Of a DNA stretch of 64,000 nt, positions 13,870 through 42,230 are shown in pieces. The position numbers were made by a program, and so were the translations under genes. Each line of letters opens with the position of its first letter. Positions within the stretch are counted from its first letter, which is position 1. The notes below the pieces were generated by a model, which did no database searches, was not told where the DNA came from, and saw only the letters and a list, made by a program, of their open reading frames with translations. This DNA comes from Candidatus Shapirobacteria bacterium (GTDB taxonomy: Bacteria; Patescibacteriota; Microgenomatia; UBA12405): contig JBAZZE010000003.1 in NCBI GenBank assembly GCA_041658955.1, positions 3,842 through 67,841 on the forward strand, written 5' to 3'.

Positions 13870-13870
13870 T

Positions 13871-16165: not shown

Positions 16166-16220
16166 CCATCAATATTTACACGCTAATTTTTAAAGAACTG
16201 ACGGATGGTTTATCGCAATG

Positions 16221-16244
16221 ATAAAAATCCGCCTTACAAAAGGC
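16221..16244 (-). terminator. Putative intrinsic terminator downstream of 16355..17356
   Basis: Minus-strand GCCTTttgtAAGGC followed by GGATTTTTAT. The adjacent perfect 16-nt palindrome CCCGAAAGCTTTCGGG (16254..16269) and the long imperfect inverted repeat CCGAACCCCTCC...GGAGGAGTTCGG (16288..16345) were also seen. Confidence 0.4.
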
Positions 16245-16354
16245 AGTTTTAACCCCGAAAGCTTTCGGGACTAAAAAACCTTTCCGAACCCCTCCCAAAC
16301 AAAACAAACAAATACATGTTTGCCGTGTTTGAGGAGGAGTTCGGTGAATAGGTT

Positions 16355-21873: not shown

Positions 21874-22518
21874 GTGTACGAAAACTCACAAAAGTTTGGA
21901 GTTATGGACGGAATGTTGGCAGTTGGTTTGGCGTTGATTACAGTTGGTGTAGGACTGGGAATTAAGTCAAAAGTTGATAAAACTAAGGTGGAATTAATTA
22001 AGGGTAAAGAGGCAGAAACTGTTACACAAGGTTATAATAAAGTAACCTTTGATATATCAGGTGAGGTGCTAAAACCAGGGGTTTATCGGTTAAGTGGAGA
22101 TTCTAGGATTAGCGATGCGATGGTGGTTGCGGGAGGATTGTCAGCAAATGCGGATAGAGATTGGGTGGAGAAAAATATCAATCGAGCCAAAAGAATAAAT
22201 GATGGGGAGAAAATTTATATTCCTAAAAAATCTGCAAACTTTGATCTTCAAACTTCAAACCAAATATCAAACAACAAAACAAAAGAAATTATTAAAACAG
22301 AACAGGTATTGGGAAGCATGAGCGGTGGGGTGATAAATATAAATATTGCAGGTGTCGAGGAACTTGATAAATTAGAAGGAGTAGGGCCGTCAATCGCTGC
22401 TAAAATAATTGAATATCGCGTAAAAAATGGGGGTTTTCGAAATATTAATGAATTGAAATTAGTTTCAGGAATTGGGGATAAAATGTTCGAAAAATTTAAA
22501 GATAAAGTGGGAATATGA
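21874..22518 (+). CDS. comEA: Competence protein ComEA (TM + SLBB + helix-hairpin-helix DNA-binding)
   Basis: N-terminal TM. SLBB-like VTFDISGEVLKPGVYRLSGDSRISDAMVVAGGL...GEKIYIP. C-terminal HhH pair INIAGVEELDKLEGVGPSIAAKIIEYRVKNGGFRNINELKLVSGIGDKMFEKF. Confidence 0.8.
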   Translation: MYENSQKFGVMDGMLAVGLALITVGVGLGIKSKVDKTKVELIKGKEAETVTQGYNKVTFDISGEVLKPGVYRLSGDSRISDAMVVAGGLSANADRDWVEKNINRAKRINDGEKIYIPKKSANFDLQTSNQISNNKTKEIIKTEQVLGSMSGGVININIAGVEELDKLEGVGPSIAAKIIEYRVKNGGFRNINELKLVSGIGDKMFEKFKDKVGI

Positions 22519-23510
22519 AATGGAGGCGAGTGGTTTTCGTAATGTTTTTTACTTGGTTTTTGATATTTGGCAGTAAATCAAAAATGTTGGGGGTAATAAA
22601 TGATTGCCTTCCATATAAAGAAGCGGGACTATTATCTGGAATAATCTTGGGAGATAAGACAGATTTTCCAAAAGATTTTGAAACTCAATTAATTAATAGC
22701 GGACTAATTCATCTAGTGGTGGTGTCGGGTAGTAATGTGATGTTGTTGATAGGAGGTGTGATAGAGAATTTGGCGTCATGGGTGGGGCGGAAGTGGGCCA
22801 TAATTTTTGGATTGGTGTTGGGGTGGAAGTATGCAATAATGGTCGGTTGGGAGGTGCCGATAGTGCGGGCGACGTTACTGCTGTCGATCATGTATTTTGC
22901 GCAACTTGTGGGGAGAAAATATAATTTGGTTAGGGGACTTCTGCTGTCAGTTTTAATAATGATAGTTGGTGAACCAAGGGTAATAGCCAGTGTCAGTTTT
23001 TGGCTATCGATAATGGCGTTTTTGGGAGTAATTACTGCCAAAAAATTTATGCTAACAAATCCAATTATTTTTCCGGTGGCGAGGTCTGCTTTGGTGACTT
23101 GTGCCAGAGGTGGATTTCGCTTCACTTTAGATAAAGTTATTAGAGAAATTCTTCAATCATTTAGGGAAACTGTTTGGATAATGATTTGGATTACACCGAT
23201 CTTAGCGCAAATATTTGGAAAAATAAGCTTAATATCGCCACTAACCAATGTCTTGGTTTTGGGATTGGTAGGGGTAGTGAGCGTGGTGGGAGCGATGGGG
23301 ATTATATTGGGGATGTGGTGGTTAACTTTGGGAAAAATGGTATTGTGGCTAACAATTCCGACTTTAAGTTATTTACGAAAGGTGGCAGAGTGGGGTGGGG
23401 GAAGTAGTGGATTAGAGATTGAATTTAATTGGTGGATTTTAGCGGGATATTATTTGATTTTAGGTTATTGGTTAATTAAAAAAAAGAAACATAATATCGA
23501 TTTCTTGTAA
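22515..23510 (+). CDS. comEC: ComEC/Rec2 competence (DNA channel) domain - N-terminal half of a split ComEC
   Basis: Signature GLIHLVVVSGSNVMLL (compare GLSHLLAISGLHV of the ComEC Competence domain). Multiple TM helices. A 4-nt overlap with comEA. The ORF ends immediately before intergenic repeat elements. Confidence 0.7.
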   Translation: MKWRRVVFVMFFTWFLIFGSKSKMLGVINDCLPYKEAGLLSGIILGDKTDFPKDFETQLINSGLIHLVVVSGSNVMLLIGGVIENLASWVGRKWAIIFGLVLGWKYAIMVGWEVPIVRATLLLSIMYFAQLVGRKYNLVRGLLLSVLIMIVGEPRVIASVSFWLSIMAFLGVITAKKFMLTNPIIFPVARSALVTCARGGFRFTLDKVIREILQSFRETVWIMIWITPILAQIFGKISLISPLTNVLVLGLVGVVSVVGAMGIILGMWWLTLGKMVLWLTIPTLSYLRKVAEWGGGSSGLEIEFNWWILAGYYLILGYWLIKKKKHNIDFL

Positions 23511-23580
23511 CCATTTTTTATTGTCGAGAATGAATGTGCGACGCACGTTCAAACAGACAATAAAAAAGATTACTGCGAAC
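23502..23580. repeat. REP-like hairpin element, copy A
   Basis: TTCTTGTAACCATTTTTTATTGTCGAGAATGAATGTGCGACGCACGTTCAAACAGACAATAAAAAAGATTACTGCGAAC. Nested inverted repeats TTATTGTC/GACAATAA, TGAA/TTCA and GTGCG/CGCAC. Both ends are A/T runs. Confidence 0.7.
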
Positions 23581-23603
23581 TCGCTATTTGTAACAAATAT
23601 TTT

Positions 23604-23786
23604 CAAACTCAAACACATTTCCTCCGTGGACCGATAATCGGGCTAGCAAGGTTAACTGAAACCACCACATCATTTTTAAGTCGAACCGATAGTCTGCCGA
23701 CTTGAATGATCCCATGCGCACGTCCGGCAGCTATCTGCATTCTCGTCGGCTACCAACCGAAAACAAGCCGACTGCGAAAACTTCTT
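23604..23786 (+). ncRNA. Conserved structured intergenic element B, copy 1 (candidate ncRNA or cis-regulatory RNA)
   Basis: Shares two blocks with 47205..47336: AAACTCAAA(C/G)ACATTTCCTCCGTGGACCGATAATCGG, and CATCTGCATTCTC-[hairpin]-TGCGAAAAC(T/C)TC. The hairpin is GTCGGCT...AGCCGAC here and GAAGACC...GGTCTTC in copy 2, which are compensatory substitutions. Confidence 0.45.
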
Positions 23787-23820
23787 TTAAAAACGATATG
23801 GTGTTTTCAAATAAATACAA

Positions 23821-24606
23821 ATGAAATATAAGTGGTGGCTGATAACTAGCTTAGTAGTTTTATTGTTAATGGTGTGGCAATTCAACCGTGATACTGGGGT
23901 GAAGGTGGTGTTTTGTGATGTAGGACAAGGCGATGGGGCGTTGATAATAAGCGGTAGTTTTCAGATGTTGATTGATGTTGGTGGTGGTAATCAGAAAATG
24001 CTCCAGTGTTTATCGAGGCACTTGCCGTTTTGGGATAAAACTATAGAAACAGTGGTAATTAGCCACTGGGATGCGGATCATAGTGGCGGACTACCAGGTA
24101 TTTATCGTTATTATAAGATTGAAAAACTATATAGTAATCAACTGTCGTCGGGGGACGGTGAACAAAAATTTTACCCAACTAAAGTATCAGAAAATGATGT
24201 CATTAGATTTGATGGGATAGATTTTGAAATACTTAATAAAGTAGTTGAAGGTGGCGACCCAAATGAAAATTCACTAATCGGAGTACTTAGTTATAAGGAT
24301 AAAAAAATATTAATGATGGGAGACGCTACTAGCGAAGCTGAACAAAGATTGGTGTGGCAAGGAATCCTTCGACAAGCTCAGGATGGAAAAGGAATAGATA
24401 TTTTAAAAATAAGTCATCACGGATCGGATAGGGCGACTTCGCCAGAATTACTTGATGAGGTCAACCCAGAAATGGCGATAATTTCAGTGGGTAAAGATAA
24501 TAAATTTGGTCACCCAGCAAAAACGGTAATAAAAAGACTGGAAGAGAGGGGTATAAAAATCAATAGAACCGATAATATGGGAGATGTAACGGTTACATAT
24601 GAATGA
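23821..24606 (+). CDS. ComEC C-terminal metallo-beta-lactamase-fold domain encoded as separate ORF
   Basis: N-terminal TM. Motifs VVFCDVGQGDGALII, ISHWDADHSGG (HxHxDH-type), LMMGDATSEAEQ, ISHHGSDRATS and NKFGHPAKTVIKRL, typical of the ComEC Lactamase_B domain. Confidence 0.65.
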   Translation: MKYKWWLITSLVVLLLMVWQFNRDTGVKVVFCDVGQGDGALIISGSFQMLIDVGGGNQKMLQCLSRHLPFWDKTIETVVISHWDADHSGGLPGIYRYYKIEKLYSNQLSSGDGEQKFYPTKVSENDVIRFDGIDFEILNKVVEGGDPNENSLIGVLSYKDKKILMMGDATSEAEQRLVWQGILRQAQDGKGIDILKISHHGSDRATSPELLDEVNPEMAIISVGKDNKFGHPAKTVIKRLEERGIKINRTDNMGDVTVTYE

Positions 24607-24674: not shown

Positions 24675-27600
24675 GTGCTGCTTCTTAAAAGACCAGTTTT
24701 AATGGGGGTTGTATTAGGGGTCTTTTTAGGGAGCCTTGTAGGTTGGGGGTGGTGGAGAGTATCGACTAAGGTTGAAGCAACAGATCGGACAATCACCAGT
24801 CGAGCTGATTTTGATCAAGGTTTGTTTGATAATACTGAAAGTAAAAGTAAGGAAGGAGAACTGAGACTAAAAGCCGGTGGTACTTGGGGAGCAAGGGTAT
24901 GGCAGATGCCAAAGGTAGGGATGACCAACCAAACAGGAATTGTCTCCGATGGAACCCACTTGTATATGTTGGCTGGTCAGGATAGGTATTTTGCTAAATA
25001 CATTCCAAATGAAGATCGATGGCAACAATTGGCCAATGCGCCACATGCTGCCTCGGTGGGGACTGATTTGGTGGTTGAGGGTGATTATATTTATGCAATT
25101 TTTGGGTCTTACACTAAGAACTTCAGTCGATACACGATCTCGACTGATACTTGGGTGAATATGGATGATGCCCCAGATTTGCTATACGATGGAGCTAGTT
25201 TGGGAACGGATGGAACCTATATTTATCTACTACGAGGGTCGTATACATCAGATTATTGGCGGTATAATCCATCAAATAATACATGGCTTAGTCTAGCGGC
25301 TCCACCAGCGACGATTGGAAGGGGGGCTAGCCTTTCATATAAGAATGGTTATTTTTATACGCCTAGAGGTGATTCAAACTTATTTTACAAATATGAAGTT
25401 GCCACAAATTTGTGGACTACTTTGCCAAATATACCGGCACCAAGTATCTCATATGCAGCTCACAACTCGGATATATTTGGAAATGCTTTGTATTACAACT
25501 TGGACTATGGGACGACAGCTTTTTACAAATTTGATTTGGGAACTACGTCTTGGTCAACACTACCGGGCTTGCCATGGCCATCTTATTACGTGGGTTTGGT
25601 GGGGGTGGGTGACACGGCTACTGGTCATGTATATGTTTTTCGAGGAAATGGTTCAGTCGATTTTTGGAAATATAATCCACGGACAAATAGTTTTGAGGGT
25701 TCGGTGGACACACCGAATGCTCCTAGTACAGGAGCAGACTTGCTTTATGATGGAAATTATCTGTATTTAAACCGAGGGGCAAATTCGACGAATATGTATC
25801 GGTACCAAATTGGAGGAACCTGGAAAACAATGGCAGATGCGCCGGCTGCTATGGGTGATGACACTAAAGGAATACAGGCTGGAGGATCGTTTTATTATAT
25901 TCGAGGGTCGGGGACGACTGCATTTTTTAAATTTGATCCGGCGATTGGGGCTAACGGGACTTGGACATCGATGTTGGGTACACCGGCCACAGCCAACTAC
26001 GGGGCGTCAGTAGTTTATCCAGGTAGTGGTAATTATATGTACGCAACCAGAGGTGCTTTGACACGAACTTTTTGGAGATACACAATTGGGGCAGGGGAAA
26101 CGTGGAGTGACGCGGCGGCGGCTGACTTACCAGATAATGCTGAAGCTGGGTATGGAGCTAGACTGGCGAGTGATGGAACAGATATCTATTACATGCCAGG
26201 AAGTGGAATGAGCAAACTTTATAAATACACTATCGGAACAACAACTTGGTCAGAAATTTCTGACATTCCCTTTTCGCCTTACTATGGGTCAGATATAAGC
26301 TACTATAACGGCAAATTGTACTTTTTGGCGGGTTACTATAAACCAGACTTTTGGGAATATACCATCGCCACCTCATCATGGAGAAGATTGGCGCCAACTC
26401 AAGATTATGGAGCCACAGAGATTGGTCCTTGGGCTGGTGCATCAATTGAATCATTGGGTAATGGTACTTTTTATGTAATTTTAGGAAATGGGGTGACAAG
26501 ACTTTTGACCTATACCGTAGATGCAAACAATTACCCAGTAAGTGGTGGGTGGACTAGTAAAGCCTTAGATTTATCATATGTAGCTTCGTGGAGTGGTCTG
26601 TCAATACAATCTTCACTGCCAGGAGACTCGTCAATTAGCTGGACAAGTCGAAGTAGTAGCGATCAAATAACTTGGAGTGACTGGATTGCTGGAGTGGGGA
26701 GTAGCATTGGGAGTCCGGTGGGAAGGTATCTTCAAGTTGGAGTAACCTTGGTATCGACGAGTGATCGGACAAATACGCCAAAGTTACTAGATATTCAAGT
26801 AAGTTATATTGGTGATACTGGAGTACCGACTAATCCATCAACGGTGGTGGGGGTGTCACAACAAGTATCGGGAGTGGGTCTGACATCGGCAGAAAGTTAT
26901 GGTTACCAAGCACCATATTTTAGTTGGAGCGGTGCGACTGACACTCAGACTTCAATTGCCGGATACTATGTTTATTTTGGAACTGGATCAAGTGCTTCAC
27001 CGGTGACCGAGGGAAATTATCAAACTGCGAGCAACTATCTAGTGACTACACCAATGGATCAGACGACTTACTATTTGAGATTGGTGACAGTTGATTCTGC
27101 TGGTAATAATTCAGCGGCAACTACAGCTTTTGTTTACACCTACAATGGAATTGCACCACCGATTACGATAACAAAGACAACTACAGCAGACTTTGGAGTG
27201 GGAACTACCAGCGCCGTGGATGTAAGTGGTGACAAGATAAAACTACAAGGTAAAGCAGGTTTTTGGGAGCAAGAGAGAATAAGCAGCCTGCCTGCAGGGA
27301 TATATTTAGGTGGTGACATGGCTTACAAAAGTAGCACTAATAAAATCTATTTATTTAGAGGCTACAATTCGAATACTTTTTATATTTATGACTTGACTAC
27401 CAATACAGTATCGGTGGGTCCGACAGCGCCAGGGGCAGTGTATTATGGTGGAGGTATGGTGGAAGGACCGGGTAATTACTTATATGCTATGAAAGGCTTA
27501 GTAACCAATTCTTTCTGGAGATTTGATGTGGGGACAACTACCTGGTCAGATGTAGCAGCGGCTGATTTACCACAGACTATATCGTATGGAGGATCGCTGG

Positions 27601-30600
27601 AATATGATGGCAGCCGATTTATTTATGCCACGCGAGGGTCGGGTGATGATGCCTTAATGAGATATGACACAATTGGTGACATCTGGGAAATGATGGCCAA
27701 TGCTGATTTTAATGCTCCAATAAATCAACCCAATAACACCATAAACGATGGTTCAGATATGGCTTATGATGGAAACGATACGTTGTATGTAATGCAGGGT
27801 GGTGGAAGAGATGGTTTTGCTGGATATAGTATTTCCACCAATACCTGGTTAACTCTTACTGATTTACCGATGTTTTCCGGGGCAGGTTCACAAATTGAAT
27901 ATGATAGTACTACCAATGCTATTTATTATGTTGCTGGTAGTGGTCGAAATTTTGTCTACAAATACGACATTGCGTCTCAATTGTGGAGTGATCTAGCAGA
28001 GACTCCAATGGCTGTAGGTGGAGGAGCTTCACTTAAAAAAATTGGAGGAAACTTATATTTGACAGTAGGTAACGGTTCGTTAGCGGTTTATAAGTACAAC
28101 ATCAATAAAAATATGTGGCTAATTCCGACCGTTGGTTTATTCGGTGGCTGGTTTAGAGGTAGTGATAGTCGCACTTTTGGATATGGGGCGGACATTGTAA
28201 AAGGGGATGGAAATAATATGTATTTAGTTAGAGGAAACTTTGACAATCTATTTGTCCGTTACAATTCAGTGACAGGAGTAGCGACTAGAATGGCCGATGT
28301 TCCTGCAGGCATGACTTCAGGTACGAAATTGGTTTATGATAGTGTTCATAACCGGATTTATGCAACCGTGGGGTCATATTATCGAAAGTTTTTTGTCTAT
28401 GATGTGGCCAGTGATACTTGGTCGGAAGAAGTAAATGATCCGCCGCCACTTGATAGTGCTGAGGGAAGTTCGATGGTGTTCAATGCTACAGATAGATATA
28501 TTTATTGGCTTCGAGGTGCTGGAACCCAGAGTTTCTATCGGTTCAACACTGAAGGCGTGGGGACTAGTAAATGGAGCATTTTGCCAAATACGGGATTGTC
28601 GATGAGCTATGGAGCTGATATGGTTTTGAAAAATGATTATATTTATACATTACGCGGTTCAAACACCACTGGATTTTTGAGATACGGTCCGTTGTCGGTA
28701 GGGGCGACTTGGTCAAATACGGCAGTGGCTGATTTACCAACCGGAGCCAATATATATAATGATGGATTCTTAGTTGATCTGGGTGGCGACTACTTAATGG
28801 CTTGTCGAGGTGGTAATCAAAACACCTGTTACCGTTACTCAATTACTGGAGATAGCTGGTCAGTAGTGACTAGCGCCACATCGCCATATATTTACACTGG
28901 AGGAGCAGGGGCAGTTAACTCGAGTGGCGAAAAAATGTTGGTGATAGCTGGAAATGGACAATTAAATACTATGTCTAATGGGTTGTATAGCTATGTAATT
29001 GAAAGTGAAAATTCGTCTTATGAAGAAAGTGGTGAATATATATCACCAGTCCATGACTTAACAGCAGTTTACAAATTTGCAAACTTAAGCATAGATGTTA
29101 CTTTGCCTGATAATACAGGACTTTCTGTATATACAAAATCATCGGCAGATAACTCGACTTGGGGAGACTGGACGGTAGCTTCTGAACAAAAAATTGTGGG
29201 TACCAATAGGAGTTTTAAGATAAACTCAACAACAGCGAGGTATTTACAGATTAAGTTGGCAATGACTTCGAGTGATGGAGTTAGGTCGGGAACAATAAAT
29301 AGCTACACAGTAAATTATTATCAAGATACAACAGAGCCAACAAACCCGACACTATTATCTGGGTATACCAATAGTGGGATGGGGACAACTTTAGTAAGTG
29401 GTGTCTGGAATAATTCGACTGCGCCATATTTCGGATGGAGTGGGGCGAGCGATGGAGCAAATGGTTCGGGGGTAGAGGGATATTATGTTTATTTTGGAAC
29501 CGGAGAAACGGCAAACCCGGTAACTTTAGGGACTTACACCACAGGAACATCTTTTATAGGAACAACCATGGTTTCAGGAGAAACTTATTATTTCAGACTT
29601 AAAACAAAAGATAGTGCTGATAATGTCAGCACGGATGTAGGAACAACTTTGGTTTATAAACTTGATAACACCGCCCCAGAAAACCCGACGGCTGTTTTGG
29701 CTAATCCACCAGGGTATACGACAATCGATAACTTTACTTTCACATGGGGAGCGGGCACAGATAGCTCTTCAGGGATTGCGGCATATTGTTATAAAACCGG
29801 TGCTAGTAGTGGTCCTCTAGCGACAGAACAATGCATTACTGATGTAGGAGTAACTGGGATAACTGGGATCACCAAATATCAAACTGATGAAAATATTTTT
29901 TACTTAAGAGTTAAAGATACGGCTGGCAACTTCGCCAGTAGTTCATTGACAGCAATTTATAAGTTTTCAGGAACTGCTCCAAGCCGACCAATGAACTTAA
30001 GAATGACTTACCCGGATGTGGGGACTAGCAACACGGTTAATGATTTTGCTTTTGCTTGGGATCAACCAGAAAGTTTCTTGGGAGCGGCTGCCAACCTAGT
30101 TTATAAATACTCAATAAACGAAGAACCAACGCCAAGTAATGTGAGTACAGTGGGGACGAATGTCCGATACTTAAGTCGAAGCCAATATGCCTCGCGTAGC
30201 GGAGTAAATACTATTTATGTGGTGGTATCAGACGAAGCTGGAAATATGGCAGTCACCGATGGAAAGTACACCAACTATGCCAGTTTGGATTTTGAAGCAT
30301 CAACTTCAGCTCCAGGAATTGGTAGAAACTTAGATATCTCTGATGTGTCAATTAAAGAAACTAGTAGTTGGAGATTAGCATTGACTTGGGATGCGCCTGA
30401 GGCATCTGGATCAGGTATCGCTAATTACCGGGTATACAGAAGCACTACTGCTGGAGCCTCTTGTACTTCAAGTATGGACAATTTTGGTGGAACAAACGGC
30501 TTTATATCGACAACGACTACCACATCGTATATTGACACAGAACTATTGCAGTCAAAATATTATTATTGTGTCAAAGCTTGTAATTCAACAGACCAGTGTG

Positions 30601-31880
30601 GGGCGCCAAGCTCAACTGTAGCCTTGCTACCAGATGGTAAGTGGCGAGTACCACCAACATTAACTGCAGAACCGGCGGCAAGTGTAAAAACAAAGACGGC
30701 GACAATTACCTGGTCGACAAATCGTAAGGGTAATTCATTTGTAAAGTATGGTAAAAGTGCTGGAGATTATGGTGAAGAAGTTGGATCATCAGATCTTTTG
30801 AGTGCCCATGAAATTGCTCTTACTGGCTTGGACCCGGGAACTACTTATTATTACAAAGCGACATGGACAGATGAGGATGGAAATACTGGCGAATCAACGG
30901 AGTATAGTTTTAAAACTAACCCGGCACCAATTGTGTCAACCGTTAAGATTGTTGACGTTGGATTGTATTCTGTTTATGTAAAATTTGGATTGAACCATGC
31001 ATCAAAAGCAACTATTCAATACGGTAAAACTACAGCGTATGGTTCGGTGGCTGAGTTAACCACATCAACTGCAGAATCGACTTATTCTGAAAAACTAGAT
31101 AGTTTGGAAGAGGGTACAAAATATCACTTAAAAATCGTGGCAGAGGATGAAGAGGGTAACAAATTTACATCGGATGATTATGAATTTGCGACTCTGCCAA
31201 TGCCTAAGATTGAGGGAGTAAAAATCCAGCAAGTAAAAGGAATGGCGAGTGCCACGATTATGGCGTCCTGGAAAACAAATACTGGAGTATCGTCGATTGT
31301 GAGTTATTACCCAGAGGGGAGACCAGAAATGACCAGAGATCAGGTTACTTTGACGCTAGGGTTGAATCACCAGATGCTAATTAAGGACCTGTTGGATGCG
31401 ACTGATTATGTAATATTGGTACGAGGTAAAGATCAAGTTGGAAATGAAGCTAAAATGAGTACCAACAAATTTAAAACTTCAACTGATCTTCGACCACCCT
31501 TAATTACTGATATGCGGGTAGAAGGGGCAGTGAGTGGAGTTGGTGAAGCGACCAAAGCCCAGATAATTGTTTATTGGAATACTGATGAGCCATCGACTGG
31601 CCAAGTTGAGTTTGGTGAAGGAACTGGTTCTGATTATCCCAATAGAACTCAAGAAGATGGAAACTTCACCCTGAATCACGTAGTAACTATTACTGACTTG
31701 AAACCTTCTCAGGTATATCATTTAAGAATAGTATCTAAAGACAGAATTGGTAACCAAGTGGAGTCATTTGATAATGTGACGGTAACACCAAAGGCAACCA
31801 AATCAGCACTCGACCTGGTGGTTAACAGTTTGTCTAAGAGTTTCGGATTCTTTGGAAGTTTAGGAAAAATAGCCCAATGA
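24675..31880 (+). CDS. Giant (2401 aa) membrane-anchored surface protein: about 40 Kelch-like beta-propeller repeats followed by FN3-like domains
   Basis: N-terminal TM. Long array of ~48-aa repeats of the form Y.Y...G.....F..Y.......W..L...P (e.g. IYLLRGSYTSDYWRYNPSNNTWLSLAAPPA). At least four C-terminal FN3/PAP-N-like units (ATITWSTNRKGNSFVKYGKSAGDYGEE...TGLDPGTTYYYKA). The stop overlaps the ABC ATPase start (ATGA). Confidence 0.7.
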   Translation: MLLLKRPVLMGVVLGVFLGSLVGWGWWRVSTKVEATDRTITSRADFDQGLFDNTESKSKEGELRLKAGGTWGARVWQMPKVGMTNQTGIVSDGTHLYMLAGQDRYFAKYIPNEDRWQQLANAPHAASVGTDLVVEGDYIYAIFGSYTKNFSRYTISTDTWVNMDDAPDLLYDGASLGTDGTYIYLLRGSYTSDYWRYNPSNNTWLSLAAPPATIGRGASLSYKNGYFYTPRGDSNLFYKYEVATNLWTTLPNIPAPSISYAAHNSDIFGNALYYNLDYGTTAFYKFDLGTTSWSTLPGLPWPSYYVGLVGVGDTATGHVYVFRGNGSVDFWKYNPRTNSFEGSVDTPNAPSTGADLLYDGNYLYLNRGANSTNMYRYQIGGTWKTMADAPAAMGDDTKGIQAGGSFYYIRGSGTTAFFKFDPAIGANGTWTSMLGTPATANYGASVVYPGSGNYMYATRGALTRTFWRYTIGAGETWSDAAAADLPDNAEAGYGARLASDGTDIYYMPGSGMSKLYKYTIGTTTWSEISDIPFSPYYGSDISYYNGKLYFLAGYYKPDFWEYTIATSSWRRLAPTQDYGATEIGPWAGASIESLGNGTFYVILGNGVTRLLTYTVDANNYPVSGGWTSKALDLSYVASWSGLSIQSSLPGDSSISWTSRSSSDQITWSDWIAGVGSSIGSPVGRYLQVGVTLVSTSDRTNTPKLLDIQVSYIGDTGVPTNPSTVVGVSQQVSGVGLTSAESYGYQAPYFSWSGATDTQTSIAGYYVYFGTGSSASPVTEGNYQTASNYLVTTPMDQTTYYLRLVTVDSAGNNSAATTAFVYTYNGIAPPITITKTTTADFGVGTTSAVDVSGDKIKLQGKAGFWEQERISSLPAGIYLGGDMAYKSSTNKIYLFRGYNSNTFYIYDLTTNTVSVGPTAPGAVYYGGGMVEGPGNYLYAMKGLVTNSFWRFDVGTTTWSDVAAADLPQTISYGGSLEYDGSRFIYATRGSGDDALMRYDTIGDIWEMMANADFNAPINQPNNTINDGSDMAYDGNDTLYVMQGGGRDGFAGYSISTNTWLTLTDLPMFSGAGSQIEYDSTTNAIYYVAGSGRNFVYKYDIASQLWSDLAETPMAVGGGASLKKIGGNLYLTVGNGSLAVYKYNINKNMWLIPTVGLFGGWFRGSDSRTFGYGADIVKGDGNNMYLVRGNFDNLFVRYNSVTGVATRMADVPAGMTSGTKLVYDSVHNRIYATVGSYYRKFFVYDVASDTWSEEVNDPPPLDSAEGSSMVFNATDRYIYWLRGAGTQSFYRFNTEGVGTSKWSILPNTGLSMSYGADMVLKNDYIYTLRGSNTTGFLRYGPLSVGATWSNTAVADLPTGANIYNDGFLVDLGGDYLMACRGGNQNTCYRYSITGDSWSVVTSATSPYIYTGGAGAVNSSGEKMLVIAGNGQLNTMSNGLYSYVIESENSSYEESGEYISPVHDLTAVYKFANLSIDVTLPDNTGLSVYTKSSADNSTWGDWTVASEQKIVGTNRSFKINSTTARYLQIKLAMTSSDGVRSGTINSYTVNYYQDTTEPTNPTLLSGYTNSGMGTTLVSGVWNNSTAPYFGWSGASDGANGSGVEGYYVYFGTGETANPVTLGTYTTGTSFIGTTMVSGETYYFRLKTKDSADNVSTDVGTTLVYKLDNTAPENPTAVLANPPGYTTIDNFTFTWGAGTDSSSGIAAYCYKTGASSGPLATEQCITDVGVTGITGITKYQTDENIFYLRVKDTAGNFASSSLTAIYKFSGTAPSRPMNLRMTYPDVGTSNTVNDFAFAWDQPESFLGAAANLVYKYSINEEPTPSNVSTVGTNVRYLSRSQYASRSGVNTIYVVVSDEAGNMAVTDGKYTNYASLDFEASTSAPGIGRNLDISDVSIKETSSWRLALTWDAPEASGSGIANYRVYRSTTAGASCTSSMDNFGGTNGFISTTTTTSYIDTELLQSKYYYCVKACNSTDQCGAPSSTVALLPDGKWRVPPTLTAEPAASVKTKTATITWSTNRKGNSFVKYGKSAGDYGEEVGSSDLLSAHEIALTGLDPGTTYYYKATWTDEDGNTGESTEYSFKTNPAPIVSTVKIVDVGLYSVYVKFGLNHASKATIQYGKTTAYGSVAELTTSTAESTYSEKLDSLEEGTKYHLKIVAEDEEGNKFTSDDYEFATLPMPKIEGVKIQQVKGMASATIMASWKTNTGVSSIVSYYPEGRPEMTRDQVTLTLGLNHQMLIKDLLDATDYVILVRGKDQVGNEAKMSTNKFKTSTDLRPPLITDMRVEGAVSGVGEATKAQIIVYWNTDEPSTGQVEFGEGTGSDYPNRTQEDGNFTLNHVVTITDLKPSQVYHLRIVSKDRIGNQVESFDNVTVTPKATKSALDLVVNSLSKSFGFFGSLGKIAQ

Positions 31881-32719
31881 CGACAATAGCAAAACAAACT
31901 AGTAATAAAGGAAAGGATGTTTTTGAAAATCTAGTAGTGGCCCAAGGAATTCGGAAAAGTTTTGATGTGGGTAATCAAGTGGTGGAAGTGCTCAAGGGGA
32001 TAGATTTAAAAATAAACAAAGGTGATTTTGCGATTATTTTTGGACCATCGGGTTGTGGAAAGTCGACCTTATTGCACACACTACTTGGTTTGGAAAAACC
32101 TTCTGAAGGTAAGGTAATCATGGAAGGTAAAGATTATTATGGAATGGGTGATGATGAGATTGTGACTTTCCGAAAAAATAACATTGGGATAGTTTTTCAG
32201 CAGCCGATCTGGATTAAGTCGCTGAATGTAATGGAGAATGTCTGTGTGCCAAATAGGCTGCGAGGGTTAACTCAGGAGGAAGCTGAGGAAAAAGCGATGA
32301 TCTCACTTCGTAAAGTAAAGCTTGAAGGTTGGCATGAATATCATCCAAATTCTTTATCTTCGGGACAACAACAGAGGGTTAGTTTGGCACGGGCACTGAC
32401 TATCGATCCACTGATACTGGTAGCCGATGAGCCGACGGGAAACTTAGACACAGTTTCGGGAGACGAGCTGATGGAACTGCTACGGGCTTTGAATCAGGAT
32501 GAGGGAAGAACGGTAGTAATGGTAACTCACGACTTGGAGTATTTGCGCTATGCCACAAAACTTTTCCATATTATTGATGGACTGCTGGTTGAGGAAATAG
32601 ATGAAAAAGGAGCGAAGAAATTGGCTGGGAGTCTGCGGAATAAAAAGGGTAAGCGAGGCGAGGAAACGGTGAGGAACAGTGATTATTTAAAAACCAGTGG
32701 TAAAAAATATGTCAGTTAA
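31877..32719 (+). CDS. ABC transporter ATP-binding protein (MacB/LolD/FtsE-like)
   Basis: Walker A GPSGCGKST. Signature LSSGQQQRVSLARAL. Walker B LVADEPTGNLD. H-loop VMVTHD. Confidence 0.85.
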   Translation: MTTIAKQTSNKGKDVFENLVVAQGIRKSFDVGNQVVEVLKGIDLKINKGDFAIIFGPSGCGKSTLLHTLLGLEKPSEGKVIMEGKDYYGMGDDEIVTFRKNNIGIVFQQPIWIKSLNVMENVCVPNRLRGLTQEEAEEKAMISLRKVKLEGWHEYHPNSLSSGQQQRVSLARALTIDPLILVADEPTGNLDTVSGDELMELLRALNQDEGRTVVMVTHDLEYLRYATKLFHIIDGLLVEEIDEKGAKKLAGSLRNKKGKRGEETVRNSDYLKTSGKKYVS

Positions 32720-34796
32720 TATAGCGCTAATTACCAATAATATTCGTAGTATACCTAAAGCGGCTAAAGGTCTCTTGGCAACTATCTGGTCTAATGTAAT
32801 TTTTATTTTACTACTGTTCTTATATTTATTGAAAAAACTTTGTGACAAATTTGGAAAGATTCTGGGATTGAAGCAAATGTCTAATTTGAGTAGTTATATA
32901 ATGAGACGAATTGATCGGAGCGGTGGTGGTCAGGTGTCGAGATTATATATGGTGGAACTTGCCCTGAAGAATTTGAGAGCTAAAAAGGTCAGGGCGATGG
33001 TGACAATCGGAGGAGTAGCGGTAGGGGTAGGAGCAATCGTGTTTTTAGTATCTCTTGGATATGGACTAGAGCGGATGGTTATTTCAAAAGTAGCCCGGCT
33101 TGACGAACTGAAAATGTTAGATGTGGGTTTGGGTGAGGTCTCTAGTTTGAAAATGAATGACGAATTTGTAAAAAAAATTAGTGAAATTGGTGATGTGGAC
33201 GAAGTGATTCCGGTGGTAGGAATGGTGTCAAAAGTCAGGTTCAAAAACTCAGTGTCAGATATTATGGCATTTGGGGTGGACCAGAGATACATTAAAGCAG
33301 TTGGTGTAAAAATGTTAACTGGTGCTGAATTTAAAGATAAAGATATGGGCTACAAATTCGGTGAAGGAACAGTAGCGGGAGTAAGCCAGGAGATAATTAA
33401 AGCTAACGTTGGGGATAGGGTTGATAAAGGGATTTATAGACTCAACACCGTGGGAGGCGAAAAGTTAAGTGTTTATGAAAAATGTGATAGTTCCAGTGAA
33501 AATTTGGGTTATATGATGAGAGTTGAGGGTGGGGTGGTAGGAGAAAAAATTTGGGGTGAATCTTATCACTTGGGTGGAGATAGTAATACCTATGTAGAAG
33601 ATGAGGTAACTGGAAAGGAATTATCACCTTGGGTTCGTCTAAAAACTTCTCTATGGCAAGTGGATGACAGTGGGATTGCTATCCCAATTTTGGATGATAG
33701 TGGTTCCCAAAAATGGGTTATTGGTTGTGTTCGGGATAAAGGATTGAAAAAAGAGAGTGGAGAAGAGCTAGGTAGTTTTAAATCTTTAAATGAATATCTG
33801 ATGGGAGTCGGTGGTGGTTCAGTATTGGGAGAATCAACCAGTTCAGCAACACCGTCGGCATTAATCGCTTCAACCGCGTCTGAATCAGCAATCGCCAAGC
33901 TGTTTGATGTAGTGGTGGCCACTGACTCAGCTGGAGTAGAGTGGGTGGAATTAAAAAAGACTGGGGATAGTGCCAAGCCAAAAGAAGATTTGGCATATAA
34001 CGACTTGCCGTCGGGTGAAGCGTATGTCAGTTCGGGGTTGGTAAAAATGTTTGGGATGGATAAACAATCGATTTTGGGACAAAAATTTGGGGTGTCATAC
34101 ATCATTCCTGATGGACTAATCCCAGGATCTAGTGGGCGAACCCAATCACAAGAGACAGATTACACGGTTAAAGCGGTAGTTGATGATGACACGTCAAACT
34201 ATTATTATTTCCAGATTGGAGATGCCAAGAAGTTGGGGGTAAAAAATTATTCCCAAGTAAAGGTGTTAACTAAAGACCAAGGAAAGGTACTGGGGGTTCG
34301 GAAAACTATCGAAAGTAGTGGGTTTAGAACTATGAGTACATTGGATACGGTGGCTCAAATTGAGAATTTATTTGCAACACTACGACTTTTATTAGGATTT
34401 TTGGGAACTATCGCTCTAGCAGTGGCTTCGTTGGGAATGTTTAACACCATGACAGTGTCGTTATTGGAACGGACTAGAGAAGTAGGGGTAATGAAAGCAA
34501 TGGGAATGCAGATTGCTGAAGTAAGAGAACTTTTCTTGGCGGAATCGATGATCATGGGAGTAGGTGGAGGGGTGATGGGAATATTGCTAGGCTATTTAGG
34601 TGGTCGAATATTATCATTAATACTTAGTTCGGTATCGATGTTTAAGGGGCAGGGAGTAATTGATATTAGCTATATACCCTGGTTTTTTGTAACCTTTATT
34701 TTGACGATTAGCTTTGTAGTAGGAATAATCACCGGTTGGTATCCTTCAAAGAGAGCGACCAAGATTTCAGCCTTAAATGCGCTAAGGTACGAGTAA
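32697..34796 (+). CDS. ABC transporter permease, FtsX/MacB family with large extracytoplasmic domain (true start probably 32877-32950)
   Basis: N-terminal LALKNLRAKKVRAMVTIGGVAVGVGAIVFLVSLGY is a typical MacB start. C-terminal FtsX domain LLLGFLGTIALAVASLGMFNTMTVSLLERTREVGVMKAMGM... Confidence 0.75.
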   Translation: MVKNMSVNIALITNNIRSIPKAAKGLLATIWSNVIFILLLFLYLLKKLCDKFGKILGLKQMSNLSSYIMRRIDRSGGGQVSRLYMVELALKNLRAKKVRAMVTIGGVAVGVGAIVFLVSLGYGLERMVISKVARLDELKMLDVGLGEVSSLKMNDEFVKKISEIGDVDEVIPVVGMVSKVRFKNSVSDIMAFGVDQRYIKAVGVKMLTGAEFKDKDMGYKFGEGTVAGVSQEIIKANVGDRVDKGIYRLNTVGGEKLSVYEKCDSSSENLGYMMRVEGGVVGEKIWGESYHLGGDSNTYVEDEVTGKELSPWVRLKTSLWQVDDSGIAIPILDDSGSQKWVIGCVRDKGLKKESGEELGSFKSLNEYLMGVGGGSVLGESTSSATPSALIASTASESAIAKLFDVVVATDSAGVEWVELKKTGDSAKPKEDLAYNDLPSGEAYVSSGLVKMFGMDKQSILGQKFGVSYIIPDGLIPGSSGRTQSQETDYTVKAVVDDDTSNYYYFQIGDAKKLGVKNYSQVKVLTKDQGKVLGVRKTIESSGFRTMSTLDTVAQIENLFATLRLLLGFLGTIALAVASLGMFNTMTVSLLERTREVGVMKAMGMQIAEVRELFLAESMIMGVGGGVMGILLGYLGGRILSLILSSVSMFKGQGVIDISYIPWFFVTFILTISFVVGIITGWYPSKRATKISALNALRYE

Positions 34797-35042: not shown

Positions 35043-36014
35043 TTATTTTACAGAGTTGTAGATTTGGCGGGATATATCGCTGATAGTCTTGGTTAGTACA
35101 TTGAAATTGTTACCTCGGGTCATGATACAGACTAAGTATGGTTTTGCGGGAAGATAAACTATGCCACAATCATGAAGTTGCTTAACACCAGTTTCATTGT
35201 AACTACGTTCGCCATATTTGTGAGCAATACTGACTGATGGATCAACACCAGCAGCGAGAGCGTCTTTATATTGACTTTGACTAAGAATATTGAGGGCTAT
35301 TTCAGAATACTTGGGATTAAGATATGAAGCATTGTAGAGAATCCGGAAAAATGATGCATATGATTTGACGGAAAGAATATCACCGTTGGGGTTGGTAAAT
35401 CCAAGACTGATGTCGACCCCTAGGTCAGCGAAGACTTTGACCAAAAATTGGTTATCAATATTGGCAAGTAACAAATCGTAAGCCTGGTTATCAGATTGAA
35501 CTATTAAATTGTTAATCATCTGACTAACAGTATATTTTTGATTTGGGACCATTGTAGTTTTTGGAGCGATATTTTGGGCATATTCTGATGCTGAAGGTGT
35601 AGCAATAAGTTCTTTTTCGAGAATTGAAGGGTCAGTTTCAGCCATTTTAAAATAGGCGATCATTAGGGGAACTTTTATCAAACTTGCTGGGGAAAAAAGC
35701 TCATTTTGGTTGATACCAAACCAAGGTCCATTGTTCATATCCCGGTAATAGACAGAGACGTGAGAAAGTTCTTTGGATTTTACTTTTTGATCGATATATT
35801 GGTTAAGTTTGTTGCGGAGCTGATCAAGGTTGGTATCAGTACTAACAGCATCGGTATCACATTCGAGTAAAGGGTTGATATATTTGTAACCAGCTGGGAG
35901 TCGGGATTCGGTGAATAGATTTAATTTATTAGGTGTTTTGGAGATTGATGCAGATAGAAAACCGGCAACGTAAATGACAATTCCTAAAAATAAGAATAAG
36001 GCCACTTTCTTCAT
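35043..36014 (-). CDS. Class A beta-lactamase-like serine hydrolase (secreted/anchored)
   Basis: Signal/TM. SxxK at FSPASLIKV. SDN at VQSDNQAYDLL. K[TS]G-like HKYGE region. Overall length is ~300 aa as in Beta-lactamase2. Confidence 0.55.
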   Translation of the reverse strand: MKKVALFLFLGIVIYVAGFLSASISKTPNKLNLFTESRLPAGYKYINPLLECDTDAVSTDTNLDQLRNKLNQYIDQKVKSKELSHVSVYYRDMNNGPWFGINQNELFSPASLIKVPLMIAYFKMAETDPSILEKELIATPSASEYAQNIAPKTTMVPNQKYTVSQMINNLIVQSDNQAYDLLLANIDNQFLVKVFADLGVDISLGFTNPNGDILSVKSYASFFRILYNASYLNPKYSEIALNILSQSQYKDALAAGVDPSVSIAHKYGERSYNETGVKQLHDCGIVYLPAKPYLVCIMTRGNNFNVLTKTISDISRQIYNSVK

Positions 36015-39584: not shown

Positions 39585-39656
39585 GTATCCCCAGGCAGAA
39601 TCGAACTGCCATTTAAGGTTTAGGAAACCTCCGTTCTATCCATTGAACTATAGGGA
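39585..39656 (-). tRNA. tRNA-Arg (anticodon CCT)
   Basis: The reverse complement folds as a cloverleaf. Acceptor GTCCCTA/TGGGGAT. D-arm GTTC-AATGGATA-GAAC. Anticodon stem GAGGT/ACCTT with loop TTCCTAA (anticodon CCT). T-arm GGCAG-TTCGATT-CTGCC. Discriminator A. No encoded CCA. Confidence 0.8.
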
Positions 39657-39694
39657 CAGGCAAACTCAACCATATGAAAATATGGTGGAATTTG

Positions 39695-39768
39695 TCGGGG
39701 ATACTGGATTCGAACCAGCAACCTCACGATCCCGAACCGTGCGCGCTAGCCAATTGCGCCAATCCCCG
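39695..39768 (-). tRNA. tRNA-Pro (anticodon CGG)
   Basis: Reverse complement. Acceptor CGGGGAT/ATCCCCG. D-arm GCGC-AATTGGCTA-GCGC. Anticodon stem CACGG/TCGTG with loop TTCGGGA (anticodon CGG, G37). T-arm GCTGG-TTCGAAT-CCAGT. Discriminator A. Confidence 0.8.
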
Positions 39769-40605: not shown

Positions 40606-40935
40606 CTATTTTATCCTTTCAATTAGCATGACAGCATCTGTTTTGGCCCTTCTTTTGTCTTCGAACAGGATTCTTCCGATATCGACACGATACACAAGGC
40701 AGGTAACTTGATGCTTTCTTTCCATATACCGGACTAGTCCGGTGGCTTCACCTCTGCTTTTGACAACACCGATACCACCCCAGCCACTCCACGGGCCTTT
40801 GCCTTCGACTATTTGTTCAGGTGGTAAACGAACCCAAGTGTTCTCTTCGTATTCAAGAATGTTTGGATTCTGGCGCAGTCCCAGGGATTTTAAATCTGAA
40901 GTGACTACTTTGAAGAATTCCTTTTGGGCCATCAA
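40606..40935 (-). CDS. Hypothetical protein
   Basis: 109-aa ORF with a 4-nt overlap with the upstream PEGA gene. No recognisable motif. Confidence 0.3.
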   Translation of the reverse strand: MMAQKEFFKVVTSDLKSLGLRQNPNILEYEENTWVRLPPEQIVEGKGPWSGWGGIGVVKSRGEATGLVRYMERKHQVTCLVYRVDIGRILFEDKRRAKTDAVMLIERIK

Positions 40936-42155: not shown

Positions 42156-42230
42156 GAATAGGGATTATAGAGGAGGTGGGTAGGGTTTTGGCTGTACGAG
42201 TCTGTTAACAAATATTGGTAGAATGTAGTA

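Follow-up and report, generated by a model that had tools for sequence, protein, structure and literature searches.

A giant Kelch/FN3 protein encoded with a MacB/FtsX-fold ABC pair: a candidate surface module of Patescibacteria

Described ABC systems related to the locus

LolCDE and HrtBA, transporters of the MacB fold, pull hydrophobic moieties (lipoprotein acyl chains and haem) out of the outer leaflet. LapA-type RTX adhesins present a pairing of a surface protein with an ABC system: a giant repeat adhesin with a C-terminal signal is encoded beside, and depends on, its own ABC system, and in diderms this substrate, which lacks a Sec signal, crosses through a HlyB-type exporter, a membrane-fusion protein, and TolC. 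Three reports (PMC7668044, PMC6355983, PMC10694151) describe the ectodomain of FtsEX as binding helical partners (EnvC, PcsB, RipC) and as acting by mechanotransmission. The function of YtrF is unsettled; roles in antibiotic stress, in competence, and in setting the thickness of the wall have been suggested (PMC8060467, PMC12772383).

Here, we describe three adjacent genes, within a window of 64,000 nt, that encode a giant protein, an ABC ATPase, and a permease of this fold; no publication describing such a trio was found in the literature searched. The host is an uncultured, ultrasmall Candidatus Shapirobacteria (Microgenomates, CPR).

Layout of the locus

24675..31880, forward strand: giant head-and-stalk protein, 2401 aa, GTG start (NCBI start M10 at 24702)
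31877..32719, forward strand: ABC ATPase of the LolD/MacB/FtsE type, 280 aa, ATG start, with a K/R-rich C-terminal extension
32697..34796, forward strand: MacB/FtsX-fold (type VII ABC) permease, 699 aa, GTG start, alternative ATG at 32709

The ATG of the ATPase overlaps the TGA of the giant as ATGA, and the ATPase and permease genes overlap by 23 nt (11 nt if counted from the ATG of the JGI gene call); no convincing terminator lies inside the trio, which has the form of an operon. Pfam assigns Kelch_1, Kelch_2, Kelch_3, Kelch_4, Kelch_6, fn3, and Pur_ac_phosph_N to the giant, ABC_tran to the ATPase, and MacB_PCD plus FtsX to the permease. A first-pass annotation of this DNA had named the three ORFs, the way they overlap, and the domain families present (Kelch, fn3, MacB_PCD, and FtsX among them), and all of this is confirmed by the ORF coordinates, the sequence, and Pfam. 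The same annotation remarked on the lack of a membrane-fusion protein, and indeed no membrane-fusion or HlyD-type gene occurs among the 20 neighboring ORFs scanned in the window; neither these ORFs nor the gene tables of seven related loci contain any HlyD/MFP or OEP family.

The giant protein

24675..24779, forward strand: predicted Sec signal peptide, aa 1-35, with an n-region (K5 R6), an h-region, and V33-E-A35 followed by T36
24933..26534, forward strand: Kelch module 1, aa 87-620, 12 blades in two six-bladed propellers (self-HMM, AF2, Foldseek)
26586..27149, forward strand: beta-sandwich and first FN3-like domain at the end of module 1, aa 638-825 (AF2, FN3 self-HMM)
27309..29024, forward strand: Kelch module 2, a duplicate of module 1, aa 879-1450, 11 detected blades and 1 inferred (self-HMM)
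29625..31784, forward strand: FN3 stalk, about 7 FN3/PAP-N-type domains, aa 1651-2370 (Pfam fn3, Pur_ac_phosph_N; self-HMM)
31785..31877, forward strand: C-terminal tail TPKATKSALDLVVNSLSKSFGFFGSLGKIAQ, aa 2371-2401, an amphipathic helix and candidate docking or extraction handle

The giant matches P0121, an "FN3 domain-containing protein" of Ca. Shapirobacteria, at 100%. Its 120 collinear orthologues are 2152-2623 aa long, with a median of 2384 aa, and show 46-78% identity. Its N-terminus had been taken for a transmembrane anchor, a reading that does not hold: the K/R n-region, hydrophobic core, and V33-x-A35 follow the pattern of a Sec signal peptide. In an alignment of 40 orthologues, the hydrophobic core varies and a small-x-Ala after it is conserved; A35 is conserved at 90% or more across 45 orthologues, and the h-region has a muH of 0.02 and an <H> of 0.77. 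By this pattern, the Sec signal peptide is predicted to be of the cleavable kind. Reading of the sequence found no Cys at the N-terminus, i.e., no lipobox, and Pfam and NCBIfam detected no other wall- or membrane-anchoring domain in the giant.

A self-trained HMM places 12 Kelch blades at aa 87-620 and 11 at aa 879-1399, and a 24th probably lies at about aa 1405-1450; the two modules share 31-32% identity over ~800 aa, and Pfam matches reach 6.7e-22 for Kelch_6 and 1.7e-12 for Kelch_1. The AF2 model of aa 31-845 (pLDDT 88.9) contains 12 four-stranded blades, followed by strands at model positions 608-697 and 718-792 that correspond to the beta-sandwich and first FN3-like region, the FN3 self-HMM matching at aa 708-818. 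Foldseek relates the module 1 model to tandem double propellers (LRP6 E1E2, BT4663, GH74) and to the SAKe6/NS1-BP Kelch domains (TM 0.79), with an rmsd of 2.5-3.0 Å and a TM of 0.79 for the six-bladed Kelch domains 8pju and 5yy8. With four-stranded blades, the Kelch consensus, and six-bladed closure, the repeats are Kelch-type beta-propellers and do not model as an unrelated fold. The first-pass annotation was right that Kelch blades are present but put them at about 40, where the self-HMM counts about 24 in two duplicated modules; its 5 to 7 propellers give way to four six-bladed ones, as judged from the blade HMM together with AF2 and Foldseek.

The stalk belongs, by sequence, to the fn3 and Pur_ac_phosph_N families above their gathering scores (44.6 bits against a cut-off of 25 and 46.9 against 30, respectively). 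The self-HMM counts about nine FN3-like domains in the whole giant, consistent with the earlier figure of at least four.

The handle on the giant is likely its C-terminus, which the first-pass annotation overlooked. The motif ITPKaTxxALnLVIxNLxxxFGFL is conserved in the giants of all loci examined, whatever the head type, and a strict regular expression for the tail is matched by 66 of the 149 top matches examined. The stalk-plus-tail block forms the extreme C-terminus of proteins in hundreds of 50%-identity clusters, and the last four FN3 domains plus the tail are matched by 1652 such clusters at E ≤ 1e-30. The tail is amphipathic and not TM-like (muH 0.37-0.45, <H> 0.2-0.37, <KD> 0.4-0.8). 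Searched against NCBIfam, the final 50 and 117 aa of the giant match no sorting-signal model, and the sole match is to an FN3-like stretch at E 0.001. Given this result and the amphipathic character of the tail, we rejected the known C-terminal sorting signals (LPXTG/sortase, PEP-CTERM, GlyGly-CTERM, MYXO-CTERM, T9SS CTD, and T1SS), the last also because the neighboring ABC system has the MacB fold and is not a T1SS exporter.

The ATPase and the permease

33093..34337, forward strand: permease extracytoplasmic domain, aa 133-547, ~415 aa, between TM1 and TM2 (AF2)
33360..34022, forward strand: lineage-specific ectodomain insert, aa 222-442, comprising a beta-rich domain (aa 229-352) and a further segment (aa 373-428)

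The ATPase matches ABC_tran at 1e-30, and its best NCBIfam models are LolD (194 bits), MacB (178), and FtsE (178), all below their equivalog cut-offs. The Walker A, signature, Walker B-Glu, and H-loop motifs are intact in the sequence (GPSGCGKST, LSSGQQQR, LILVADEPT, and VTHD), which identifies the protein, on sequence grounds, as a cognate nucleotide-binding subunit of the LolD/FtsE/MacB type with intact catalytic motifs.

In the permease, Pfam places MacB_PCD at aa 101-242 and FtsX at aa 568-691. The AF2 model (pLDDT 77) has a TM1 helix at 97-132, the ectodomain at 133-547, and three C-terminal TM helices, beginning with TM2 at 548-601; four TM helices and, between the first two, a large extracytoplasmic domain with a Porter/Sabre-type core are the architecture of type VII (MacB/FtsX-fold) permeases, to which the model assigns this protein. 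Foldseek matches include Spr0694-5 and, at a probability of 1.0, MacB, LolC/E, YtrF, and HrtB, with MacB (5gko) on top and LolCDE at E 1e-16 to 1e-13; by sequence, the closest solved structure is YtrF (E 7e-31 over TM2-4; PDB 9o9x). The ectodomain had been singled out as unusually large, and so it is, at roughly twice the MacB periplasmic core (~200 aa; the MacB_PCD profile has 207 positions), although modeling sets it at ~415 aa and not the ~500 first estimated. Within its insert, pLDDT is 80-90 for aa 232-352; for aa 373-428 it falls below 50, even though this segment contains near-invariant residues (VLGE..., LF..VV.TD..G.EWVELK). A profile search with the insert returned no sequence relative in the PDB.

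Comparison with described systems

(i) FtsEX (partners EnvC, PcsB, CwlO, and RipC) is likewise a MacB-fold ABC complex with no transported substrate and, in monoderms, no membrane-fusion protein; through its ectodomain it engages a helical stretch of a protein outside the cell and passes ATP-driven movement on to it, as we propose for the trio. Unlike the FtsEX partners, the giant is not a peptidoglycan hydrolase or activator (Pfam and NCBIfam detect no hydrolase domain), its candidate handle is a C-terminal helix of ~20 aa rather than an N-terminal coiled coil, and the ectodomain it would meet has ~415 aa against ~100 aa. Identity with FtsEX is rejected on these features and on scores (FtsX, 23-32 bits versus 225-255; FtsE, 178 versus 265).

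(ii) LolCDE has the same permease fold, its LolD is the best NCBIfam match of the ATPase, and its logic, by which a Sec-exported protein has its handle drawn out of the outer leaflet of the membrane, could apply here. The giant, however, has neither a lipobox nor a Cys; a C-terminal peptide helix would serve as the handle; one permease gene (a homodimer) stands in place of a LolC/LolE pair; and there is no LolA-type acceptor. The lack of a lipobox and the scores (lolCE, 61 bits versus 362; LolD, 194 versus 308) exclude LolCDE proper.

(iii) MacAB-TolC shares the MacB_PCD plus FtsX architecture with four TM helices. In the trio, the nucleotide-binding domain is a separate polypeptide, the host is a monoderm, and the ectodomain is doubled by the lineage-specific insert; with neither a MacA/HlyD-type adaptor nor an outer-membrane duct in the ORFs and related loci scanned, this identity is rejected.

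(iv) YtrEF of Bacillus subtilis is also a monoderm MacB-type pair without an adaptor, but YtrF, at 436 aa, lacks the insert, and no giant partner gene has been reported for it.

(v) LapA-type adhesins resemble the trio in concept, that of a giant adhesin with its own ABC system and a C-terminal signal, and differ from it in that the N-terminus of our giant is of the Sec type and its partner has the MacB fold.

Conservation and variation across the CPR

The CPR/Patescibacteria constitute a large share of bacterial diversity and are thought to live attached to other cells. The permease is present in at least 581 species-level genomes. The first-pass annotation expected the three genes to stay together in relatives, and this is the case in 63 of the 67 genome loci with enough upstream DNA to test: these keep the order giant-ATPase-permease in unrelated genomic contexts, and the remaining four are rearranged Microgenomates loci. 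The order recurs in seven metagenome loci whose flanking genes differ (ComEC/LeuRS, ribosomal L10/L12, rhodanese/prepilin peptidase, and HEPN).

Heads are exchanged among these giants, which range from 970 to 2914 aa and bear Kelch, DUF2341, LamG_3, BclA_C-like, or FGE-sulfatase-like domains or FN3 domains only; some head variants have an N-terminal segment resembling an uncleaved anchor. Every variant keeps the ~750-aa FN3 stalk and the tail motif, and in each locus with enough upstream DNA the stalk lies directly upstream of the ATPase at 38-82% identity, regardless of head. Genomes with two giants have two complete trios, and since stalk identity is lower between paralogues (62%) than between orthologues (72%), the paired trios are older than the species split.

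Parcubacteria/Uhrbacteria giants carry a variant tail ending in FGW. In two loci (L091 and L094), the genes after an FGW-tail giant encode an ABC ATPase and a MacB/FtsX permease of 404 aa that lacks the ectodomain insert; in L092, an ABC ATPase comes after the giant and the contig then stops; and the Parcubacteria giant of L093 has no adjacent ABC genes. The swappable head with an invariant stalk and tail, the co-duplicated trios, and this Parcubacteria linkage support the earlier suggestion of a dedicated system as opposed to a generic exporter. The trio is a concrete, widely conserved candidate for surface machinery, with a constant base and interchangeable heads, in both Microgenomates and Parcubacteria.

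Possible functions of the trio

Gene context and knowledge of the family suggest surface assembly or extraction by mechanotransmission. The reading we prefer, albeit tentatively and with confidence a little short of even, is that the trio is a dedicated Patescibacteria surface module in which the tail and stalk of the giant are held by a type VII ABC mechanotransmitter as a membrane base. The giant would be exported by Sec, its signal peptide then being cleaved, and would display a ligand-binding, perhaps adhesive, head (here, four Kelch propellers) on its stalk of about seven FN3 domains. The tail helix and membrane-proximal FN3 domains would be captured by the enlarged ectodomain and the outer-leaflet cavity of the dimeric permease, and the permease-ATPase complex would therefore be the membrane base of the fiber. 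ATP binding and hydrolysis in the cytoplasm would be passed on mechanically, without any substrate crossing the membrane; the tail would thereby be loaded or held, and the fiber perhaps moved. In favor of this reading are the tight operon, the kept gene order, the exchange of heads on a constant stalk and tail, the paired trios, the Parcubacteria linkage, the amphipathic tail, the lack of another anchoring domain in Pfam or NCBIfam, and the MacB fold of the permease with an ATPase of intact motifs. Such coupling of tail and permease, if true, would give type VII ABC mechanotransmitters a new class of partner and would define a new signal for C-terminal anchoring or sorting (TPK-helix-FGF/W), and the tail motif plus ABC pair would become a genomic marker for host-contact proteins of uncultured CPR. 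Because the tail is common to Microgenomates and Parcubacteria and the insert is not, the insert cannot be a universal tail receptor; moreover, some heads come with an uncleaved-anchor-like N-terminus, so anchoring may not need the ABC complex. Against the membrane-base reading also stand the L093 giant with no ABC genes beside it, the four rearranged Microgenomates loci, and the fact that a passive anchor gives no reason for ATP. One form of the idea, which we consider unlikely, is an undescribed Patescibacteria-wide organelle with the C-terminal helix of the fiber plugged into its own ATP-coupled MacB-fold motor; hydrolysis would load, tension, retract, or release the fiber during host-cell attachment, a new use of mechanotransmission if true.

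A reason for ATP use is supplied if the complex instead works as a LolCDE-like extractor, which strikes us as somewhat unlikely: a tail helix left stuck in the outer leaflet once Sec has exported the giant would enter the MacB-type lateral cavity and be expelled by ATP, releasing the giant to the wall/S-layer zone or the medium, so that the two would relate as substrate and enzyme and not as a stable complex. The Foldseek grouping of the permease with MacB-fold transporters such as LolCDE and HrtBA is consistent with extraction, as is the FGF/FGW aromatic cluster that ends the amphipathic tail and is typical of interfacial segments. The tail also occurs in Parcubacteria systems whose permease ectodomain is the core only, making recognition by the common TM/Porter-Sabre core plausible. 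However, each giant has a trio of its own and the genes are translationally coupled, as would suit partners in fixed stoichiometry better than a catalytic extractor of many substrates; an FN3 stalk at the C-terminus and a variable head at the far end give the geometry of a cell-anchored fiber; and a released giant would have no retention domain recognizable by Pfam or NCBIfam.

Conservation of an operon speaks for shared function and not for contact, and the ABC system might, without touching the giant itself, handle some small molecule or one linked to lipid (for instance, a peptide, a glycan, or a lipid carrier) needed for modifying, attaching, or protecting the giant. Genes for a WecG/TagA-type glycosyltransferase and MurB lie downstream of the trio in the window, in a block syntenic in close relatives, as such an indirect link might predict; but this synteny is gone in distant relatives while the trio stays, and the invariant tail and stalk and the co-duplicated trios with different heads would be left unexplained, which makes the link improbable. 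That the pair is a chance neighbor of the giant, either a generic antimicrobial-peptide or drug efflux pump, as the source (JGI) annotation "ABC-type antimicrobial peptide transport system permease" would have it, or the FtsEX of the cell, to which weak FtsE and FtsX model matches point, is very improbable. The permease scores far below NCBIfam cut-offs (FtsX, 23-32 bits versus 225-255; LolCE, 61 versus 362; MacB, 78 versus 966), its ectodomain is four times the size of that of FtsX, and it stays next to the giant in 63 of 67 loci, a linkage that spans two CPR superphyla.

Layout and family membership of the trio

The gene for the giant head-and-stalk protein is followed on the same strand by an ABC ATPase gene and a gene for a permease of the MacB/FtsX fold. 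By ORF reading, the features are as follows:

24675-34796, + strand: block of the three genes, opening with the giant ORF (2401 aa; GTG start at 24675)
31877, same strand: ATG start of the ATPase ORF (280 aa)
32697, same strand: GTG start of the permease ORF (699 aa; an in-frame ATG at 32709 is the JGI gene-call start)

These are the three overlapping ORFs reported in the first-pass annotation: the stop codon of the giant and the start codon of the ATPase share the sequence ATGA, and the ATPase and permease ORFs overlap by 11 to 23 nt. A consensus scan returned no convincing terminator within the block, in which promoter-like and terminator-like matches are at chance level. The domains then expected are recovered by Pfam, with Kelch_6 (6.7e-22), Kelch_1, fn3, and Pur_ac_phosph_N in the giant, ABC_tran (1e-30) in the second ORF, and MacB_PCD plus FtsX in the third. 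The top-ranking NCBIfam models are LolD, MacB, and FtsE for the ATPase and MacB, ADOP, LolCE, and, weakly, FtsX for the permease; because these scores all lie far under the curated cut-offs, we place the pair in the MacB superfamily but outside all of its named systems. The trio would work like FtsEX with its partner or like LolCDE but belongs to neither, nor does it belong to MacAB-TolC, as none of the 20 neighboring ORFs scanned encodes a membrane-fusion protein (an absence already remarked on in the first reading). It is a genuine type VII ABC system whose presumed partner is of a new class. In the literature searched on Patescibacteria surface proteins, we found neither the trio nor its tail motif, only general comments on large surface proteins that contain FN3 domains.

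Architecture of the giant protein

When a blade HMM is trained on the giant's own sequence, it recognizes 12 blades in aa 87-620 and 11 more in aa 879-1399. The two halves of the protein align with each other at 31 to 32% identity across ~800 aa, on which basis a twelfth blade of the second set would lie at ~aa 1405-1450; this alignment also points to the internal duplication of an ~810-aa supermodule. The AlphaFold2 model of aa 31-845, built with 45 orthologues (pLDDT 88.9, pTM 0.79), is all-beta: 12 four-strand groups come first, then a beta-sandwich and a domain resembling FN3. Foldseek matches this model to tandem double propellers (LRP6 E1E2, BT4663, GH74, and Gemin5) and to single six-bladed Kelch domains (8pju and 5yy8; TM 0.79, rmsd 2.5 to 3.0 Å). 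Together, the blade counts, the model, and the structural matches give four six-bladed Kelch propellers, in place of the five to seven estimated earlier from ~40 blades. There are ~9 FN3-like domains: each of the two double propellers is followed by one, and the other seven form a C-terminal array.

The N terminus, first described as a transmembrane segment, reads instead as a predicted cleavable Sec signal peptide, and the anchor was dropped on motif conservation only: K5 and R6 precede a hydrophobic core and V33-E-A35, of which A35 is conserved in ≥90% of orthologues. Among forty orthologues, the hydrophobic cores differ, while the small-x-Ala motif is the same and stands directly before the conserved mature start T-x-T-S-R-x-D-F. 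No other wall or membrane anchor in the giant is recognizable with Pfam or NCBIfam.

The protein ends in a 31-residue amphipathic helix, TPKATKSALDLVVNSLSKSFGFFGSLGKIAQ (muH 0.37 to 0.45, mean hydrophobicity 0.2 to 0.37). Unlike the signal-peptide core and the first permease TM helix (muH 0.02 to 0.05, mean hydrophobicity 0.77), this tail is therefore no TM anchor, and it matches no NCBIfam sorting-signal model. Its consensus, ITPK[AS]T..AL[ND]LV[IV].NL...FGFL, stops 3 to 10 residues short of the stop codon in all head types.

Conservation of the trio in Microgenomates

The giant is 100% identical to a protein in NCBI that comes from a Candidatus Shapirobacteria MAG. The homologues carry the names Shapiro-, Woese-, Roizman-, Levy-, Collier-, Beckwith-, and Daviesbacteria, Pacebacteria, and WWE3, all of which belong to the CPR branch Microgenomates. 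The 120 best orthologues are collinear over their full length at 46 to 78% identity (median length 2384 aa, range 2152 to 2623), and an alignment of 41 sequences is almost without indels; in this they differ from fast-evolving repeat adhesins. When one genome was scanned for each GTDB species, at least 581 genomes proved to contain a relative of the permease. Gene order was counted at the best 80 loci, 67 of which have at least 3.2 kb upstream: at 63 of these 67, a stalk ORF (a giant-type ORF carrying the FN3 stalk, whatever its head), the ATPase, and the permease follow in this order on one strand (median giant-ATPase gap, 30 nt), and the remaining four have a stalk ORF in an altered arrangement. 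The order persists despite flanks as different as ribosomal L10/L12 (Pacebacteria), rhodanese plus prepilin peptidase (locus L009), and HEPN/MerR (locus L010), which bears out in relatives the linkage that the first-pass annotation proposed.

Kelch modules occur in only about half of the stalk ORFs. The others (970 to 2914 aa) bear DUF2341, LamG_3, BclA_C-like, or FGE-sulfatase-like heads or consist of FN3 only, and the C-terminal stalk of ~750 aa is present in all head variants at 38 to 82% identity, as is the tail. An exhaustive search that used the final four FN3 domains together with the tail as query matches, at E ≤ 1e-30, 1652 clusters (50% identity); in most single-stretch top matches, the alignment reaches the final residues of proteins 840 to 3300 aa long, and the strict tail regex is satisfied by 66 of the 149 top matches examined. 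Genomes with two giants (loci L079/L089 on one contig and L053/L062 in one MAG) have a separate ATPase and permease for each giant. Stalk identity is 62% between paralogues versus 72% between orthologues, and the trio paralogues thus predate the species split. The trio has no conserved fourth partner gene; ORFs of 660 to 700 aa downstream in L007 and L009 were considered and rejected, being mutually unrelated and missing from the window and other loci.

Individual loci depart from the common plan. In L006 (6811-12043), a tandem duplication yields an ATPase, a chimeric 543-aa ORF (the N-terminal part of MacB_PCD joined to a PAP-N FN3 domain), another ATPase, and the permease, and the giant gene is split into two ORFs. 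The Pacebacteria loci L007/L008 have an extra 129-aa ORF (8852-9241) between giant and ATPase, with an N-terminal hydrophobic segment, FN3-like sequence, and no Pfam match; their permease (10001-12568) measures 855 aa, with an insert that is larger still. Variants with DUF2341-type heads (L051, L055, L072, L079, and L090) share the N-terminal motif (Y)LxEPRFHFSRFQFNL directly before the hydrophobic segment, which resembles an uncleaved signal anchor more closely than it does a signal peptide.

A related module in Parcubacteria

More distant giants (2000 to 6300 aa), in clusters whose members bear the names Uhrbacteria and Parcubacteria, have the variant tail LTPxxxxS[IV][IL]Q[LI]I..F...FGW. 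Four loci show the following arrangements:

L091 and L094: giant, ABC ATPase of 483 to 496 aa, then an ordinary MacB_PCD/FtsX permease of 404 aa that lacks the insert (ATPase and permease at 9398-12089 in L091 and 17444-20170 in L094)
L092: giant, one small ORF, a 426-aa ABC ATPase (13025-14305), then the contig end
L093: giant without adjacent ABC genes

The ATPases of L091, L092, and L094 (426 to 496 aa) have a C-terminal extension of ~220 to 250 aa with no Pfam match.

Permease structure and proposed mechanism

In the AlphaFold2 model of the permease (43 homologues; pLDDT 77), an N-terminal extension containing a long hydrophobic helix precedes TM1 (aa 97-132), after which come the ectodomain (aa 133-547) and three C-terminal TM helices. 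MacB, LolC/E, Spr0694-5, YtrF, and HrtB take the top Foldseek ranks, and the closest solved protein by sequence is Bacillus subtilis YtrF (7e-31). As the first reading had it, the ectodomain is unusually large, roughly double the usual size, owing to an insert at ~aa 222-442. The first part of this insert is a confidently modeled beta-rich domain (aa 232-352); the second (aa 373-428) has a pLDDT of <50 yet contains the near-invariant residues VLGE and LF..VV.TD..G.EWVELK, a combination of conservation and low monomer confidence that would fit a segment ordering on a partner. A profile search of PDB sequences found no relatives of the insert (best E, 0.59).

The tail, stalk, and ABC pair stay constant and the head varies, as in a shared base that bears exchangeable ligand-binding tips. 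MacB-fold complexes are not known to move their substrates across the membrane; ATP-driven dimerization of the NBDs moves the ectodomain and the outer-leaflet cavity, and this movement holds and activates helical extracellular partners in FtsEX and extracts hydrophobic moieties from the outer leaflet in LolCDE and HrtBA. From this family behavior, the constant base, and the lack of another anchor in the giant, we propose a capture-and-hold model. Sec would export the giant, which would then be captured on the permease by its amphipathic tail (in Microgenomates, with membrane-proximal FN3 domains also touching the ectodomain insert), and the giant would be kept on the dimeric permease, with ATP loading or moving it.

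The presence of one trio per giant, together with translational coupling, leads us to favor, tentatively, a stoichiometric complex of the giant and the ABC pair, with the giant held on the permease. On the same grounds, a LolCDE-like extractor that releases the giant, the main competing explanation, appears rather unlikely, although it would fit the amphipathic, aromatic nature of the tail and the occurrence of the tail in Parcubacteria systems whose permeases lack the insert. The evidence from gene context that links the three genes is unusually strong and broad, and the mechanism is one that we infer; an indirect link, in which the ABC pair serves a small or lipid-linked substrate, seems quite improbable, and chance adjacency, or an ABC pair that is itself FtsEX or a drug pump, very unlikely.

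Genomic surroundings

In the window, the trio is flanked by ComEA/ComEC/MBL genes on one side and by a class-A beta-lactamase-like gene and LeuRS on the other. The surrounding features are as follows:

1-11627, - strand: three paralogous giant ORFs in tandem, featuring an N-terminal TM, DUF2341, and 5 to 7 LamG_3 domains (1751 aa, 1503 aa, and a third of at least 631 aa that runs off the window start)
11641-17356, - strand: Big_1 protein and several ORFs without a Pfam match, downstream of the tandem giants
21874-24606: ComEA, ComEC 'Competence' domain ORF, and separate metallo-beta-lactamase ORF (split ComEC), directly upstream of the giant gene
35043-36014, - strand: class-A beta-lactamase-like gene (Beta-lactamase2; 927-1868 in L003 and 675-1643 in L004)
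39585-39768, - strand: tRNA-Arg(CCT) and tRNA-Pro(CGG)
40932-44475: PEGA-domain protein, MreB, and WecG/TagA glycosyltransferase, behind the two tRNA genes

No further copy of the module was found in the window; the DUF2341/LamG giants that stand in tandem at its start were rejected as one because they are without stalk, tail, and ABC genes. The order ComEA, 'Competence', metallo-beta-lactamase is the same in L003 to L005, and the PEGA/MreB/WecG/TagA block is syntenic with L003 to L006. The Beta-lactamase2 gene adjoins the trio in close relatives, lying downstream in the window and upstream in L003 and L004. Across 1-64000, every one of the 32 consecutive 2-kb windows has a positive GC skew (0.04 to 0.38), independent of gene orientation; for a complete genome from Microgenomates, an unusual strand composition disparity is reported in the title of one paper (PMC7143001).
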